Shown here: piece after piece, positions 2,871 through 39,050 of the stretch
How the letters are laid out: every line of letters starts with the position of its first letter
How positions within the stretch are numbered: the stretch's first letter is position 1
IMG/VR virus record: IMGVR_UViG_3300040985_001055
Coordinates: 1 to 47,951 of that record
Direction: 5' to 3' (one strand)
Length of the DNA stretch: 47,951 bases
Origin: a virus
Taxonomy: Duplodnaviria; Caudoviricetes
Translations under genes and position numbers: made by a program
Notes under the pieces: model-generated
Told to the model about the DNA's origin: nothing
What the model saw: only the letters and a program-made list of their open reading frames with translations
Databases searched by the model: none

Positions 2871-3223
2871 GTGATATAAAAAGTATATTTGTCTATCAGT
2901 CCATAAAGGGATCGTTTGATTCAGAATATACAAGTATATCAACCCTACCTAATGGGGGTAGAGAATATTTCCCTAAAGACATTGCACAAAAATATGTAGA
3001 TGGGATTGCAAAGACTAATGAAAATTTAATTATTGAGAATGCCAATCTAAAAAGAGAACGTGAAGAAATATTAAAGCTGATTCAAGAGGCGTATGAAGTA
3101 TGGGTGGGTAGTGAGGGTTTTGAACCTAAAACTGCACCAGAAGCATATCAACAAAAATTGATTAAGGGCATGTCCGAGCTACTCAAGGAAGCTCTTGAGA
3201 TTGCGGACAAGGAGGGGAAATGA
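2867..3223 (+). CDS. Hypothetical protein
   Basis: ATGA-coupled, AGGAG RBS. Confidence 0.65.
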   Translation: MSDIKSIFVYQSIKGSFDSEYTSISTLPNGGREYFPKDIAQKYVDGIAKTNENLIIENANLKREREEILKLIQEAYEVWVGSEGFEPKTAPEAYQQKLIKGMSELLKEALEIADKEGK

Positions 3224-4242: not shown

Positions 4243-4462
4243 CTGCTGCAACGAATGCCCTTACATCGAGCAGATGTGGACAGGCGAATATCGAAGGGCT
4301 GAACGTGTATGGTACTGTGCTAATTCTGAAACTCACTTTCTGATACTTAGTCAGGATAGATTCAAGATACATGAATGGTGCGAAGGAGAAGACTTGGAAG
4401 TTTTATTGGAAAGAGAATATCTTATGAAATTGATAGAGGATCGATTAGATGGCTGTGTCTGA
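4139..4462 (+). CDS. Cys-containing hypothetical protein (true start probably downstream)
   Basis: CCNECPY...WYC...IHEWC pattern; abuts terL. Confidence 0.55.
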   Translation: MCIFPMITELLILRISIRILVLSMNMSITKAFSVDCCNECPYIEQMWTGEYRRAERVWYCANSETHFLILSQDRFKIHEWCEGEDLEVLLEREYLMKLIEDRLDGCV

Positions 4463-7130
4463 TACGGGCATGAAATATAATGTTGCTGGAGAAAAGAAGC
4501 TCATTGAGCAGATGCTTACTCCGGACATAATGATATATCCTCTTAACTATGTGATGTTTGCATTTCCTTGGGGTCAACAAGGAACTCCACTTGCAAATAA
4601 GAAAGGTCCGCGTAAATGGCAGCGTGAGGAGCTTGAAAAGATAGGTAAACATAACCTTGAAAATGTCTACAGGATGAATAGGGACGAAGATCCAATTCCT
4701 TATAATCTTGCTATTGCCAGTGGCAGGGGTAGTGGCAAAACGACATTCTTTGGATGGCTTTCGCTATGGGCTGCGTCTACTCAGATAGGGTGTACTGTGA
4801 TAATCACTGCAAATACCGAACAGCAGCTTAGAACGAGAACATGGGCTGAACTTGGCAAATGGCATACAATGGCGATAAACAGTCATTGGTTTGAACGTAC
4901 TGCCACTACTCTGAAACCGGCTAAATGGCTCGACACTTCACTCAGGGACAAATCACAGAAGGACACTGCATATTACTATGTCATGGCTCAGTTGTGGTCT
5001 GAGGAGAATCCTGATGCGTTTGCGGGTGTACATAATGAGAATGGCGTAGTTTTGTTAATGGACGAAGGTTGTCATGATAATAAAACAGAAGTTTTGACAG
5101 AGAATGGATGGAAGATGTTCAAGGATTTAGACGGAGACGATAAGCTTCTAACTAAGAGCCCGGACACCCATGTAGCGGAATATTCAACGCCTACCCAGTT
5201 GGCTGCATTTTACAAAAAAGGAAAAATGCACTTGTACGAGAAGAGGGGCGGTAATTTTTGCGTTACTCCAAATCACAGAATGTTCTATCGAAGTTTAAGT
5301 GCAAAATCTGAGACGAGTAAAGGTAGGTGGAAATTTGGAGAAGTTCAGAATATGTCAAAATCCCAACACCATATTGGGAGGACAATAAAATGGATCAGAA
5401 AAGATCAAGACTTTTTTGTGTTGCCAGGATTAGTTTCTGCAAGAAAAGAATTTCCAGAAAGATGGTTTCATTTAGATGACATCTTAGAGTTATTTGGTTA
5501 TTATTTTAGTGAAGGGCATTTAAACAAAGGCAGTAGAAGGGCAGATGGAAGTAAGCTTGTATATGGTTTTGGGCTAACACAGCAATCTGGAGACGTATTT
5601 GATAAAATGGTAGGAGTTTTGTCCAGGCTCAAATTAAGGTATAAAGTGTATTCATGCTACAGAAACAGCAAGCAAATCCATATAAACGATATGCAGTTCG
5701 GTAGATGGTTGGCTCAGTTCGGTCACACATGCTTGGTTAAGCGCGTGCCGAGGTTTATTCAAGAATTAAGTTCTCGTCAGATAAAGATATTCTTAAAGGC
5801 GTTTTTGGATGGAGATGGATACGTTCATAGGAAAGCTTCTATATATTATACTTCATCAAAAGAAATGGCTGATGACCTGCAAGAACTTGTGCTTAGAACA
5901 GGTAAACATTGTACATTGAAAGTTCGCAAGTTGAAAGGGAAGCGGATTGACTTTGGGACTCATATTGCTCATTCTTCATGTGATGGGTATGTTGTCTCGG
6001 AAAATTCGGGCAGCGAGGAGTTTTCATTTCACACAAAGAAGCAGGAGTTAATAGATTATAATGGTATGGTTTATTGTGCTGAAGTCCCTCCGAATCATTT
6101 ATTGTTTACGCGGAGAGAAGGGTATTGCATGTGGAGTGGTAATAGTAATATTCCGCAGTCTATATGGGACGTGTCAGAAGGTTTCTTTACAGAGCCGATT
6201 TATCTACGGTTTTGGTTGGTAATGTCTAACCCTCGTAGGCCAGATGGTGCATTCTTTAATTGTTTCCACAAAGATAGAGAATTCTGGAATACCAGGAATA
6301 TCGACTCAAGAGATGTAGAAGGTACGGATAAATCGATATACAATAAAATTATTAAAAAGCATGGCGCAGATTCAGATGTTGCCAGGGTAGAAGTAAAAGG
6401 GCAATTTCCTCGTACCGGATCCAATCAGTTGATCGGATATGCTACAACCGAAGAGGCTGCGAGTAGGCATATCAAGCTTGAAGATGTTGCTGGTTCTGCC
6501 AAGATACTCACTATAGATGTAGCAAGATATGGGGACGATCTATCTGTAATCATAAAAAGGCAGGGGCTTCTCTGTCATATTCCAATAGATTTTGCCAAGA
6601 TGGACAATATGACCCTTGCCGGTATAATTGCAAATATCGCTAACGAATGGGATGCAGATGCTATTATTATCGGTTCAGGTGGCGGTCAAGGCGTAATTGA
6701 TCGGTTAAGGCAGTTAGGCTTCAATGTCCTTGAGATTGACGAAGGTGGATCTGCAGACCGTAAAGACCTGTATATCAATAAGCGTATTGAGATGTGGGAT
6801 AAGGTAGATGAATGGCTAATGTCGGGAGGGGTCATACCTAATCACGAAAGACTCAAAGAAGACCTGTCTGCGCCTATGTACGATTTTACTCCAACCAGTA
6901 ATAAGAAGCTTCTGGAAAGTGTTGCTGATATGAAAAAGAGAGGACTGCCTTCTCCTGATTTCGGTACTGCATTGGCCCTCTCATTTGCAATTGAAATTGC
7001 TCCATCACTCGGAATAATGAATAGGGGCAAGGGCAATATTGTGAACACTTTTGATCCATTCTCAATTCCTGATACGTCAAATATTCAAACCGAAAAAGGA
7101 CAAAGATTGAAACGGTTTTTTGAAACTTGA
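4449..7130 (+). CDS. terL: Terminase large subunit interrupted by an intein (about 535 aa after splicing)
   Basis: Walker A SGRGSGKT, Walker B VLLMDE, MSNPRR coupling motif, nuclease DVARYGDD and SPDFG. Confidence 0.95.
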   Translation: MAVSDTGMKYNVAGEKKLIEQMLTPDIMIYPLNYVMFAFPWGQQGTPLANKKGPRKWQREELEKIGKHNLENVYRMNRDEDPIPYNLAIASGRGSGKTTFFGWLSLWAASTQIGCTVIITANTEQQLRTRTWAELGKWHTMAINSHWFERTATTLKPAKWLDTSLRDKSQKDTAYYYVMAQLWSEENPDAFAGVHNENGVVLLMDEGCHDNKTEVLTENGWKMFKDLDGDDKLLTKSPDTHVAEYSTPTQLAAFYKKGKMHLYEKRGGNFCVTPNHRMFYRSLSAKSETSKGRWKFGEVQNMSKSQHHIGRTIKWIRKDQDFFVLPGLVSARKEFPERWFHLDDILELFGYYFSEGHLNKGSRRADGSKLVYGFGLTQQSGDVFDKMVGVLSRLKLRYKVYSCYRNSKQIHINDMQFGRWLAQFGHTCLVKRVPRFIQELSSRQIKIFLKAFLDGDGYVHRKASIYYTSSKEMADDLQELVLRTGKHCTLKVRKLKGKRIDFGTHIAHSSCDGYVVSENSGSEEFSFHTKKQELIDYNGMVYCAEVPPNHLLFTRREGYCMWSGNSNIPQSIWDVSEGFFTEPIYLRFWLVMSNPRRPDGAFFNCFHKDREFWNTRNIDSRDVEGTDKSIYNKIIKKHGADSDVARVEVKGQFPRTGSNQLIGYATTEEAASRHIKLEDVAGSAKILTIDVARYGDDLSVIIKRQGLLCHIPIDFAKMDNMTLAGIIANIANEWDADAIIIGSGGGQGVIDRLRQLGFNVLEIDEGGSADRKDLYINKRIEMWDKVDEWLMSGGVIPNHERLKEDLSAPMYDFTPTSNKKLLESVADMKKRGLPSPDFGTALALSFAIEIAPSLGIMNRGKGNIVNTFDPFSIPDTSNIQTEKGQRLKRFFET
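5070..6143 (+). mobile_element. Intein (358 aa) with LAGLIDADG homing endonuclease in terL
   Basis: Block A CHDNKTEVLTENGW, block B VTPNHRMF, LAGLIDADG motifs FGYYFSEG and FLKAFLDGDG, block F VYCAEVP, ends ...WSGN followed by +1 Ser. Confidence 0.92.
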
Positions 7131-34552: not shown

Positions 34553-34560
34553 TTTTAGGC

Positions 34561-34674
34561 AACAGAAACGACATGGTAGCGACAGACGAAATTGGGTTAT
34601 ACCAATAAAGGCTATGTTATTACGCTTAACATTACCATGTCCACAGGAGGGTATTGTCGCTAAACCTTTCTGTT
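34561..34674 (+). ncRNA. Candidate pseudoknotted RNA
   Basis: Three long complementary pairs plus two internal hairpins in a non-coding gap. Confidence 0.5.
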
Positions 34675-34860
34675 TTAATTAAATCAATGCCAGTAACAGA
34701 AGTTTAACAATCTTCTGCTAACCGATAAAAGGTCTTTCGGGCTGGCTGTAATTAAGCGCAGAGAGAGGGCTGTTTTCTGGATTTTACTTAGCATTTAATC
34801 TTACCTTCGCTGTCCTCTTTCTGTGTGATATTTTGATAGATAGCTTTAAGAAGTAACATA

Positions 34861-34980
34861 GCTCAGGCGGTAGTGTAAATAGAGCACATGCCCTCTTCAA
34901 GGGTGCAGAGTAGGATGACTAAATCAGTGTATAGGTGCATGGCCTACGAAAACTACTGGCAATTTCCTACCCGTCTGAGT
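34861..34980 (+). ncRNA. tRNA-like RNA with ~50-nt structured insertion in the T loop
   Basis: GCTCAGGCGG/CCGTCTGAGT, GTGT/GCAC, TGCCC-TCTTCAA-GGGTG, GTAGG/CCTAC. Confidence 0.55.
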
Positions 34981-35001
34981 GAATTTATTGAGGAATAAAT
35001 T

Positions 35002-35457: not shown

Positions 35458-35632
35458 AGATAATTTTATTTGGAGTCAGTTGAGTGAGTAAAAAAGTGGT
35501 GCATAAAAGAATGACATTTTATTATAGTATTGGGTATTTTGGAATATCTCTTTGCAGGGGATTGAGAATGGTTAATATGAATTATCAGTGGAAAAACGTA
35601 ACCTGTAAGAAGTGTTTGAAAGGGAGAAAGGA

Positions 35633-35847
35633 ATGAGCATTACTTTTACTTCAAATATAACTTTTGTAACTGAAAATTGTTATAAGTGCGGGGTGTCTTG
35701 AAAGTCGCAAGTGGGTATTATCAAGGAAGTACTTCAAGTGCAATCATCACAGAGTTGGGATTAAAGAGGACAACTCTAAACGAATTAACTGAAAAGGGCA
35801 AAAAGTATCTATGGGAACAGTTTCACGATAAGGTGTTAAATTTATGA
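35633..35847 (+). pseudogene. Two gene fragments fused out of frame (deletion scar)
   Basis: ORF with RBS stops after 22 codons just past CYKCGV; a second frame without start or RBS runs GVLKVASGYYQG...LTEKGKKYLWEQF to a stop coupled to the next gene. Confidence 0.45.
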
Positions 35848-36317
35848 GCAACAATCCCAAGAAACCATATGAAACAATTTATTTACAGTGGAGCGAAGAG
35901 GAAGTATCGTGGTGTCAAGATCGTATAAATGATGATGATATTACGTATACTCTCAAATCCACCGCAGATAAGTGTGAACAAGAATTGCGCAATATTATTA
36001 AGATGCATAAGGAGAGTAATTGTTGTTGTGTGATTGAAGATAATGAAGTGACTGAATACTGTGCTCTTCATGCGTATATGCAAGCTAATATAGAGCAAAG
36101 TAATGGAATCTTGGCTACAACTGCTTATTGTTCTGGTTATGATGCAGCAAAGAAGGAATTTGAAGAGGTGTTGAAACCGATTCGGGATCTCAAAGAGAAA
36201 ATAGTAACAGAAAGTCTATCTGCTGATTGCTATAGTGCTAAAGCATTAAAATTAATGATTGATACGCTTAGGGCAATCAAGGAAACTCTTGCTCTTGCGA
36301 ATAAGGTTAATAAATAA
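35844..36317 (+). CDS. Hypothetical protein
   Basis: P...IYLQW...V.WC.DRI.D.D..Y phage-type N-terminus. Confidence 0.65.
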   Translation: MSNNPKKPYETIYLQWSEEEVSWCQDRINDDDITYTLKSTADKCEQELRNIIKMHKESNCCCVIEDNEVTEYCALHAYMQANIEQSNGILATTAYCSGYDAAKKEFEEVLKPIRDLKEKIVTESLSADCYSAKALKLMIDTLRAIKETLALANKVNK

Positions 36318-36339
36318 TTTTAGAAAAAGGAGTATAATT

Positions 36340-36864
36340 ATGTCTAATAATAAAAATTGCTACTCATGCTACTCATGCGACTCATGCTACTCATGCTACT
36401 CATGCTACTCATGCAACTCATGCGACTCATGCAACTCATGCGACTCATGCAACTCATGCTACTCATGCTACTCATGTATCTATTCTAAGGGATTAAGAAT
36501 GTCGGAAAGAATGATTTTTTGCCTTGGAGAAGGTCGTTTAAAATCATCAGGAATTGGATATCAGAAAAATAATATGGTTTTTAATAAGCAAGTTTCAAAA
36601 GAAAGATATGATGCCGTTCTTTCTCAAATCAAAACAATATTTAAAGATTTAAAATTAGAATTAAATAAAAATTCATGGACAGATGAATGGAAGAAGGTAA
36701 CAAAAGAGCAGTGGATTCAATTGTCACAGATTGCAGAATTTGATATTGGTGTAGTTGAGGGTATTGTCGGGTTTAGACCTGGTGATAAGGTCACGATAAC
36801 GGTTGAAGGCAAGAGCATTGAGATAAGCAGGGAATCTGCGAAAGCTCTTAATTTAATTGATTGA
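36340..36864 (+). CDS. Protein with 13 C-[YDN]-S tripeptide repeats
   Basis: AAGGAG RBS, ATG 36340; repeats then FC....FNK.V domain. Confidence 0.8.
   Translation: MSNNKNCYSCYSCDSCYSCYSCYSCNSCDSCNSCDSCNSCYSCYSCIYSKGLRMSERMIFCLGEGRLKSSGIGYQKNNMVFNKQVSKERYDAVLSQIKTIFKDLKLELNKNSWTDEWKKVTKEQWIQLSQIAEFDIGVVEGIVGFRPGDKVTITVEGKSIEISRESAKALNLID
36358..36474 (+). repeat. 13 x 9-bp tandem repeat TGC-NAC-TCA
   Basis: Counted directly; only the first base of the NAC codon varies (T, G or A). Confidence 0.95.
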
Positions 36865-36888
36865 CAAATGAGAATGAACATGTATTAT
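36861..36888 (+). promoter_or_regulatory. Sigma70-like promoter TTGACA-N16-TATTAT
   Basis: Same form as 40382-40409. Confidence 0.65.
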
Positions 36889-36938
36889 AAAGAAATAAAA
36901 TAACGTATATGTGCCGATATACTATGAGATGCTTCACG

Positions 36939-36985
36939 ACCCCTTCTCGTTTACCTCGGCACAGGTAAGCTTGAGGGGTTTTTTT
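36939..36985 (+). ncRNA. c4/CI-like antisense hairpin / terminator
   Basis: ACCCCTT..GTTTACCT-CGGCAC-AGGTAAGC..GAGGGGT plus T run; loop and bulge complementary to boxes at 36910-36929 and 37182-37199. Confidence 0.65.
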
Positions 36986-36997
36986 ATGAATAATTAT

Positions 36998-37075
36998 GCC
37001 GGTGTAGCTCAGTCTGGTTAGAGCAGTTGATTTGTAATCAACGTGTCACGGGTTCGAATCCTGTCTCCGGCCCCA
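36998..37075 (+). tRNA. tRNA-Thr(TGT)
   Basis: Full cloverleaf; anticodon loop TTTGTAA; GGTTCGAATCC; encoded CCA; one T-T mismatch in the acceptor stem. Confidence 0.9.
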
Positions 37076-37080
37076 ATTAA

Positions 37081-37160
37081 TGCGCGGTAGTTCAGTCTGT
37101 AGAGTAGAACAACGAGCTAATAACTCGGAGAAGCAGAGGTTTAATTCCTCGCCTGCGCTC
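37081..37160 (+). tRNA. Degenerate tRNA with AAT anticodon (probable pseudo-tRNA, Met-like body)
   Basis: GTTC/GAAC D stem, CGAG-CTAATAA-CTCG anticodon arm, GAGG-TTTAATT-CCTC T arm, GCGCGG/CTGCGC acceptor; no CCA. Confidence 0.55.
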
Positions 37161-37205
37161 ACTAAGATAAAAGGCAGTATGTGTGCCTATAAAATGAGAT
37201 AAGTT

Positions 37206-37919
37206 ATGGCTAGAATCCGATATTTAAAACCTGATTTTTTCTTTGACGATGATCTAGCTGATCTGAAATTTGAGGCAAGATTGGTTTTTCAAGGTCTTTG
37301 GTGTCATGCAGACAAGGCCGGAAGGCTCGAAGATAAACCAAAAGTGTTAAAAGCCAAAATCATGCCGTTTGACAAGGTAAACATGGATATGCTCTTATTT
37401 GATTTGGCTGAAAAATTCATAACCAGATACGAGGTAGATGGACGTAAGTATATACAGATAAACAGTTTCAGCAAGCATCAAAAACCGCATCACACCGAGA
37501 AAGAATCGACACTTCCTGAGTGTAACGGTGCTTTAACCGTTAAGAAACCGTTAGAGTTGGGAGGGAATGGGGAAGGGAATGGGGAAGAAGAAGATAAAGA
37601 GAAAGAGAAGGGGTTCGATTCTTTCTGGAATTTATATCCACCAAGAAATGGCAAGAAGCTTGAAAAAGGTGTTTGCTTGAAAATGTTCATGGATTTAAAT
37701 AAAGATGATATTCCTAAAATACTCGAAGCTGTGAAAAACTATGCTGACTCTAAACAAATCAAAGATGGCATTGGCATTAAAGATCCAAAGCGGTTCATTC
37801 AGAAAGATTTCTGGAAGGAATGGATTGTTCCGGAAACTGTAGTTCCTGGCAAATCAGACAATTATAGCCTTAAAGAAGTTGACTATACGAAAGGATTGGA
37901 GGGGTTTGAGAAGAAATGA
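37206..37919 (+). CDS. Phage replication initiator / replisome organiser
   Basis: MARIR.LKP.FF.D..L, LW..AD..GRLED.P..LK, F.KHQ.P, C-terminal F..FW..YP. Confidence 0.85.
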   Translation: MARIRYLKPDFFFDDDLADLKFEARLVFQGLWCHADKAGRLEDKPKVLKAKIMPFDKVNMDMLLFDLAEKFITRYEVDGRKYIQINSFSKHQKPHHTEKESTLPECNGALTVKKPLELGGNGEGNGEEEDKEKEKGFDSFWNLYPPRNGKKLEKGVCLKMFMDLNKDDIPKILEAVKNYADSKQIKDGIGIKDPKRFIQKDFWKEWIVPETVVPGKSDNYSLKEVDYTKGLEGFEKK

Positions 37920-38176
37920 AACATGTTGAAAATGTTTATATAAATTATGACCCCTTCGAAGGAGATAGAGACAGTGGTATTCGTTGTAAAAAAGTAAAAC
38001 TTGTTAAGACTCGAAAAGAACATGATTGTATTAGTTTTGATCATAAAGAGCAGCATGAAATTGCAAAAGGGGAAATGGCAAGAGTTGAAACTGCTATAGT
38101 TGATGGTTCATGGGGCTCTTATTATATGTGTACTGACTGTATAGATAAGTGGTTAAATTTAACAGGAGTTCTGTAA
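37916..38176 (+). CDS. Cys-containing hypothetical protein
   Basis: VKTRK.H.C ... Y.C..C.DKWL. Confidence 0.65.
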   Translation: MKHVENVYINYDPFEGDRDSGIRCKKVKLVKTRKEHDCISFDHKEQHEIAKGEMARVETAIVDGSWGSYYMCTDCIDKWLNLTGVL

Positions 38177-38466
38177 TGACCTACTACAAAATCACGTTCA
38201 GGATGCTTAAGAAAATATTATGTTGGACATTCGGCCACGAACCTTATAGCCCTTATCCTGCCGAATATGCTGGATATGATTATCCAAATCATACTCCATG
38301 TGCAAGGTGTGGAGTGTGGGATATTAGCTATCATGATTTAGTTTCTCCATCTAGATATGAATGGATAAAAAGCGAAATCAAACATTACTTTTATTTCAAG
38401 TGGAAGTATTATTTTTCTAAGTCTAAGCAAAATATTGATGGCACTTACGATGACTTGCCTTTTTAA
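38176..38466 (+). CDS. Hypothetical protein (LC..FGH...C.RCG)
   Basis: TAATG-coupled ATG at 38176; ends DDLPF. Confidence 0.6.
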   Translation: MTYYKITFRMLKKILCWTFGHEPYSPYPAEYAGYDYPNHTPCARCGVWDISYHDLVSPSRYEWIKSEIKHYFYFKWKYYFSKSKQNIDGTYDDLPF

Positions 38467-38498
38467 TCTTGTGTTAAATAAATTAGAGGAAGCGAATA

Positions 38499-39050
38499 AT
38501 GGATAACGCCCAAAAACTATACACCGATAACTGTGGCATTCCTGCTCGGTACAAAGATTGCTCTTTTGACAATTACGAGGCTACAAGGCCAGAACAGGTA
38601 AATGCCAGGACAACCATATCCGGTAAACTACACGATACGATCCTCTGTGGTGGCGTTGGCACTGGCAAAACACACTTAGCGTGTGCGAAGATCAATTATG
38701 TGGTTGGCGAGGGCTACAGAGCCGTATACGTTGAAATGATAAAGCTTATTCGGGAGATAAAGCAATCATGGAAAGATCAGAAGTTATCAGAAATATCAAT
38801 TATCCGGAAATATGGCCTTGAAATACCTTTTCTGGTTATAGACGAAATCGGTGTTCAATTTGGATCTGATACGGAAAAGCAATATCTAACTGAAATTATC
38901 AATGATCGGTATAACAACAAGCTTAAAACCTTTCTCATTACTAATCTGGACATGAAAGGACTCACGGATATAGTTGGTGAACGTGTAATTGATCGGTTTA
39001 GAGAGTCGAAACAGGTGATAATCTTTGGATGGGGGAGTTTTAGAAAGTGA
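38499..39050 (+). CDS. DnaC/IstB-like helicase loader ATPase
   Basis: GIP.RY..CSFDNY, GGVGTGKTHLA, LVIDEIG, IINDRY, GERVIDR. Confidence 0.92.
   Translation: MDNAQKLYTDNCGIPARYKDCSFDNYEATRPEQVNARTTISGKLHDTILCGGVGTGKTHLACAKINYVVGEGYRAVYVEMIKLIREIKQSWKDQKLSEISIIRKYGLEIPFLVIDEIGVQFGSDTEKQYLTEIINDRYNNKLKTFLITNLDMKGLTDIVGERVIDRFRESKQVIIFGWGSFRK

Follow-up and report, generated by a model that had tools for sequence, protein, structure and literature searches.

A conserved kissing-loop terminator leader, with a predicted regulatory function, ahead of phage replication genes

A kissing-loop terminator leader that is real, conserved and uncatalogued in Rfam stands ahead of the replication genes of a phage; its function is predicted. 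The conserved unit is a leader of about 90 nt made of a promoter, a hairpin (P1), a terminator-type hairpin (P2) and a U-run. It is smaller than the unit drawn by an initial annotation, which had read the locus as a C4/CI-like antisense switch with two embedded tRNA genes and a second pair of boxes just before the initiator. We are highly confident that this is a genuine regulatory leader. Transcription of the replication genes probably depends on it, and on balance we favour a two-state attenuator, formed by the two hairpins and probably sensing its own terminated RNA.

The window, that is, the whole stretch of 47,951 nucleotides that was analysed, is a complete phage genome (94-nt terminal overlap, completeness estimate 100), and the runs containing this phage are marine DNA runs; none of the 19 runs listed was an RNA run, which says nothing about expression. 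The genome encodes podovirus-type virion genes, RecT, RusA, the initiator and a DnaC-like loader, and all genes with family matches lie on the + strand, a methyltransferase excepted. A search of this genome for a tyrosine integrase, a serine recombinase, ParA or an HTH_3 protein found none. The DnaC-like loader likely shares a transcription unit with the initiator. On its 5' side, the promoter is adjoined by a 174-aa ORF with CxxC repeats at its N-terminus (36340-36864), which has 12 viral relatives and no Pfam family. Elsewhere, the genome carries an O-antigen ligase-like (Wzy_C) gene (879-2162, E 9.5e-22) and an 893-aa terminase large subunit (4449-7130) with a LAGLIDADG-like domain inside, where an intein is possible. 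A 450-nt stretch 5' of RusA (34553-35001) is free of long + strand ORFs, and a tRNA-like multi-stem fold of -41 kcal/mol without an Rfam match lies at 34851-34990.

Table 1. Features of the leader and of the genes that follow it, with positions in the window.
Feature	Position	Strand	Evidence or remark
Sigma-70-type promoter, TTGACA, 16 nt, TATTAT	36861..36888	+	11/12; top of 13 sites in 35500-38500
Hairpin P1, 6 bp, loop GUGCCG (36911-36916) = core of box 1	36905..36922	+	Folds; family stem covariation
Box 1, TGTGCCGA	36910-36917	+	Read directly
Box 2, ATGAGA	36924..36929	+	Predicted extension of the cis alternative helix here; not conserved as a box
Terminator-type hairpin P2, long, loop CGGCAC (36957-36962), 7-U run (36979-36985)	36938..36985	+	Fold z -4.3; family
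TCTCGT, P2 segment facing box 2	36945-36950	+	Read directly
P2 loop region, TCGGCACA	36956-36963	+	Read directly
tRNA-Thr(UGU), encoded CCA, cloverleaf and anticodon intact	36998..37075	+	ARAGORN; Rfam 64.3 bits
tRNA-like gene, degenerate: AAU in the anticodon position, T-loop changed, without CCA	37082..37159	+	27.3 bits
Degenerate direct repeat of the leader 5' end (36895-36930), 27/36	37167..37200	+	1/2000 shuffles
Local 5-bp hairpin, predicted mask of downstream TGTGCC	37172..37188	+	Opening cost 6.3 kcal/mol
Putative 7-codon mini-ORF, stop 3 nt 5' of the initiator ATG	37179..37202	+	Sequence; overlaps downstream box
Downstream box TGTGCC	37182-37187	+	Read directly
Downstream box ATGAGA	37194-37199	+	Read directly; initiator ATG at 37206
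Replication initiation protein, 237 aa	37206..37919	+	PHROG 16167, E 2.9e-43; other matches too
DnaC-like helicase loader	38499..39050	+	PHROG 50, E 1.4e-47; IstB_IS21

Read directly, the boxes, the hairpin and both tRNA-type genes of the initial annotation are all present where it had placed them (Table 1). Transcription presumably starts near 36895 (+1), where a contig of run X14 joins behind a different TATAAT, which bears weakly on the start. Box 1 and the P2 loop region form an 8-bp complement, and box 1 is itself the loop of the hairpin at 36905-36922, which had been missed. The complementarity of the P2 loop to box 1 stands, but the loop as predicted is shorter than had been drawn, the 6-mer CGGCAC. 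The proposed TCTCGT bulge is only half unpaired, would cost 6.4 kcal/mol to open, and pairs with ATGAGA through a helix that includes one G-U. P2 has a predicted folding energy of -21.3 kcal/mol (z -4.3), equalled by 0 of 200 shuffles, and was not called by a simple terminator scan. In the 48 kb the box pair TGTGCC..ATGAGA is found twice, where 0.06 occurrences would be expected. By itself TGTGCC is at chance frequency (18 observed, 16.9 expected), so that genome-wide trans targets were rejected. Identical and overlapping contigs from other runs bridge the hairpin, the tRNAs and the initiator; the arrangement is therefore not an assembly artefact. Contigs of 8 runs carry no strain variants within the boxes, so no covariation is readable from them.

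Evidence for a conserved element comes from a family of 19 members, this phage and 18 viral or metagenome contigs, found through DNA pattern scans of viral contigs and protein homology and chosen by eye. Dropped before this count were L149 (a near-duplicate of L147), L284 (no model match) and L192 (P1 of only 3 bp, although it passed the terminator filter); L156 and L261, which did not pass it, were retained by eye, L261 as a doubtful member. Two tests are independent of the choice by eye. In a scan without selection on the upstream box, GTGCCG lay upstream in 3/3 distinct CGGCAC terminator-loop matches versus 0/21 others. In a scan without stem selection (53 distinct matches), a stem of at least 5 bp closed GTGCCG in 12/15 terminator-loop matches versus 5/38 others, two groups that differ in base composition. 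Over the 19 members, P1 stems vary in sequence yet pair, 62 of 76 pairs being in register versus 20-32 when slid, and in a rough alignment (MAFFT, with the structure supplied by the analyst) the whole structure is 77.6% paired versus 58.0% when shuffled (0/500). Together, the family pairing and the enrichment tests bear out one part of the initial annotation: a structured, conserved RNA control element, with complementarity between box 1 and the loop, does lie ahead of the initiator.

The loop pair is GUGCCG/CGGCAC in 16 of the 19 members. Covariation of loop and box among relatives, which the initial annotation had looked to, is seen in L213, whose compensated pair GUUCCG/CGGAAC spans 9 bp, but L031 and the doubtful L261 combine GUUCCG with CGGCAC and so carry a central U-C mismatch, and box 2 is not conserved. 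Loop invariance is no evidence since it was built into the search patterns, and only one two-sided loop change was seen because those patterns fix the loop sequence. Beyond both loops and the terminator base, no conserved letters were found among members. In L031, whose initiator is the nearest full-length relative (64% over 156 aa), the leader has the same -35 hexamer, a P1 and a CGGCAC-loop terminator on a different stem; the initiator ATG follows about 15 nt past the U-run, without a tRNA or a downstream box.

The distribution of the leader is mosaic. Of 145 distinct regions upstream of initiator homologs, only one carries it, and an initiator, loader or replisome-organiser gene lies downstream in 9/19 members (17 scanned), the remaining ones having ParB-like, helicase-like, HNH or unidentified genes in this place. 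The loop sequence occurs behind both sigma-70-type and TAnnTTTG-type promoters. The latter motif, which we take to be a Bacteroidota-type promoter element, stands 18-23 nt 5' of the P1 loop in L156, L162, L173, L194, L197, L199 and L213. The proposal of an RNA-only switch in a phage free of CI and integrase agrees with the absence of a tyrosine integrase, serine recombinase and HTH_3 protein here, but does not extend to the family, given that 3/7 complete member phages encode an HTH_3 protein. A tyrosine integrase is present in 1/7, the L261 phage, and neither a serine recombinase nor ParA was found in 11 member records. The L261 phage also carries two CGGCAC-loop terminator copies with mismatched upstream boxes (G015:C1:16138-16251 and 34588-34675), and these leader copies may form a separate subfamily.

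Viral contigs scanned for the exact hairpin, or for the full two-box pattern, yielded no match, and a third pattern scan gave 3 matches, all unrelated. No match to the leader was found in 12 loci with relatives of the CxxC-repeat gene, no similar leader in annotated phage genomes, and no model match in 80 genome loci that encode relatives of the L166 initiator, in 6 further loci, or in 4 whole genomes with only 150 candidates scored in each. A pattern search of 401 genomes returned 17 matches, close to the reversed-pattern control; its lone weak model match, L397 (25.7 bits, mismatched loops), is not counted as a member. A sequence-free scan of this and 8 member genomes for a second leader with other loops found none that was convincing: a perfect kiss was present in 9 of 128 long terminators, of which 6 belong to known members and 3 are weak. 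Shuffled controls showed a perfect kiss to a hairpin loop at a rate of 0.9%. Long terminator-type hairpins with no kiss detected also lie 14-21 nt (L007, L065, L097) or 200-370 nt (L040, L079, L084, L089) 5' of the initiator match. When the 450 nt upstream of position 3001 were viewed by eye in loci of other initiator homologs, L004, L010, L012 and L015 displayed apparently unrelated structured leaders with internal complementary boxes, and those of L004 and L010 had no Rfam match.

Folding predictions suggest how the two hairpins may compete. For this phage, the predictions have both boxes pairing in cis at first, giving an alternative hairpin that excludes the terminator: in nascent transcripts ending at 36963-36975, one helix joins box 1 to the P2 loop sequence and box 2 to TCTCGT (-17.7 to -19.0 kcal/mol). 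At 36980, P1 plus the terminator fold is favoured instead (-25.6 kcal/mol). In the finished leader both loops are predicted to be open, at a cost of 0.03-0.04 kcal/mol, with a core duplex of -9.3 kcal/mol. The core pairing is within the nascent minimum-energy fold of 11/19 members and missing from that of 8/19, predicted by a program in which pseudoknotted kisses cannot be shown. By a rough geometric length estimate, full P2 excludes the cis kiss in 13/18 members. Pairing that prolongs the alternative helix past the core has p 0.015 here, with weak support among the members as a whole (Fisher p 0.013, or 0.045 without this phage; cross-member permutation p 0.063); a box 2 of at least 6 pairs is found in 2/19 members (p 0.06 in this phage).

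We propose that the P1 loop GUGCCG would pair with the emerging P2 loop CGGCAC and block completion of the terminator, in which case RNA polymerase would continue into the tRNA, initiator and DnaC-like genes. Were P2 completed, transcription would end at the U-run, the two folds excluding each other. The input would most likely be the terminated leader RNA: since both loops are predicted to stand open once the leader is finished, such RNA, as it accumulates, could use its CGGCAC loop to bind the P1 loop of transcripts still being made, acting in trans and tipping them towards termination. We infer this self-sensing step; its outcome could be negative feedback or superinfection control, following a P4 CI-like logic.

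C4 and CI antisense RNAs are multi-stem and cloverleaf-like, and C4 operates through two short boxes and coupling to icd. Like them, the present leader itself contains a target, located 5' of the antisense segment. They differ in that theirs is a multi-stem RNA cut from the leader, and here P1 and one long terminator hairpin are predicted. In PMC4825925, P4 CI is described as a leader-derived RNA before the replication genes, processed from the leader, that pairs with its own leader to cause premature termination and has pairing sites both upstream and downstream. An RNA ahead of replication genes that pairs with its own leader is also the logic proposed here; however, the antisense loop here sits on the terminator itself, and the family is without a downstream site. 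PMC8546580 has C4 acting in trans to repress Ant synthesis, and titles cited there and in PMC11143913 describe it as a processed 77-base RNA with a precursor that is an RNase P substrate; seqA and CI are related to IsrK and C4 in PMC3632133, and PMC2864571 gives a motif table that bears on C4. The downstream copy in this phage resembles P1/P7 C4 (Rfam RF01695; c4-a1b1 motif) in its two short boxes and small ORF, but C4 regulates an antirepressor rather than an initiator, matches this leader neither in sequence nor as a model, and any RNase P site here is that of an ordinary tRNA in this phage alone. As to topology, PMC7736828 and PMC11611296 describe guanidine-IV as a pair of hairpins whose downstream member is an intrinsic terminator; contact between the two loops is proposed to prevent the terminator stem from forming in full, the kissing loop and a lengthening P2 being in competition, and such a topology can antiterminate. 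The leader shares with guanidine-IV (GGAM-1/mepA motif) the pair of hairpins with complementary loops, the second a terminator, but guanidine is bound there through conserved loop letters ahead of transporter genes, and here we find mostly phage replication genes and no Rfam match. Rfam searches returned only tRNAs over the window, nothing with the C4 and IsrK models, and 0 matches at gathering score over the 18 member loci. Thus the leader combines P4 CI-like logic with guanidine-IV-like topology and is a member of neither; nor is it a C4/CI member. No description of it was found in the literature searched, mostly papers outside subscription; the 10,006 candidate RNAs of PMC10690425 could include this family.

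A full C4/CI-type switch, the reading of the initial annotation, would have freed leader RNA act in trans on two-box targets upstream and downstream; termination or an RNase P cut at tRNA-Thr would release it, and downstream pairing would block a mini-ORF coupled to the initiator. We consider this quite unlikely. It would fit the recurrence of both boxes 6-24 nt before the ATG, which only 0.1% of shuffles of 36987-37205 reproduce together, a full two-box duplex of -16.6 to -17.6 kcal/mol, the intact tRNA that begins 12 nt 3' of the U-run, and the pairing of P4 CI with sites on both sides (PMC4825925). The downstream copy also overlaps the seven-codon ORF that ends 3 nt before the initiator ATG, and for this reason the idea of a second target stays alive, at low odds. 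However, the boxes sit in a longer repeat (37167..37200), missed by the initial annotation, in which non-complementary letters are preserved too and the final G of the loop core is gone; the downstream TGTGCC is predicted to be masked, needing 6.3 kcal/mol to open against a duplex of -8.8, and the antisense TCTCGT has its own opening cost (6.4 kcal/mol). A complement to the 6-nt loop within 300 nt downstream occurs in 2/19 members, about chance (~13% per 220 nt), so a conserved downstream target is not supported; nor is a need for tRNA processing, as 0/18 of the other members have a tRNA in their fetched loci. Membership of C4/CI is unsupported as well, with no Rfam C4-family match to E 10 over 36500-37500 and a single terminator hairpin. 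The second tRNA-like gene (37082-37159), at 27.3 bits, is below the Rfam cut-off of 29 and was not called by ARAGORN; another ARAGORN tRNA (Leu, anticodon TAG) at 646-724 shares its first 12 bases with tRNA-Thr (36998-37009). The tRNAs as antisense carriers were rejected on sequence inspection. We infer that the leader was duplicated, that tRNAs were inserted between the copies and that the second copy then lost P2. The tRNAs and downstream boxes are best explained as additions peculiar to this phage, to a switch that would work without them. A bolder view would have an undescribed family of self-sensing kissing-loop attenuators by which integrase-less phages count their genomes or exclude relatives through RNA alone; in this phage, as a further step in evolution, the duplicated 5' end and the inserted tRNAs would have rebuilt an upstream-target/antisense/downstream-target switch independently of P1/P4, in which host tRNA processing frees the regulator and unhooks the initiator mRNA. 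We regard this view as a long shot.

Two simpler readings dispense with the trans step. The same two folds could form a cis-only attenuator, with a protein of the phage or the host, a small ligand or the speed of the polymerase tipping the balance. This is unlikely in our view, though several observations lean its way: the guanidine-IV-like topology (PMC11611296, PMC7736828), the recurrence of the loop sequence behind two promoter types, and the same central mismatch in L031 and in L128 = L261, two members found without selecting for the upstream box, which would suit a loop partly retained for a purpose other than pairing. Also, most complete member phages are without integrase or ParA, so an immunity role is not implied. 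Against it, apart from the loops and the base of the terminator there are no conserved letters from which a ligand pocket might be built; there is a compensated loop change, and the loop conservation is a search-pattern artefact. At its simplest, the leader would be an ordinary terminator close to the promoter, preceded by a hairpin that protects the 5' end, with the loop match having no regulatory effect and read-through due to leakiness or a protein antiterminator. This would agree with the finished terminator fold being the most stable predicted state in this phage, with the kiss being absent from 16/17 initiator-homolog regions that have a long terminator hairpin (145 examined) and with the mismatched kiss of the nearest relative, L031. 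The upstream box (3/3 versus 0/21) and the P1 stem (12/15 versus 5/38), the 0.9% control rate of perfect kisses and the compensated pair in L213 speak against it and make it very improbable. A leader-peptide model was also rejected, an ORF running from P1 to the P2 loop being present in 2/19 members. We continue to favour the self-sensing two-state attenuator.

If it works as predicted, the leader would control phage DNA replication through a compact RNA gate absent from Rfam. The tRNA arrangement is one phage's peculiarity and adds less than the initial annotation supposed. The unit of about 90 nt, with its natural matched and mismatched loop variants, is directly testable in vitro. If the proposal is true, a riboswitch-like fold would be joined to the immunity-type logic of phages, in phages that mostly lack integrases, which bears on how non-integrating phages pace their replication or persist in the host.
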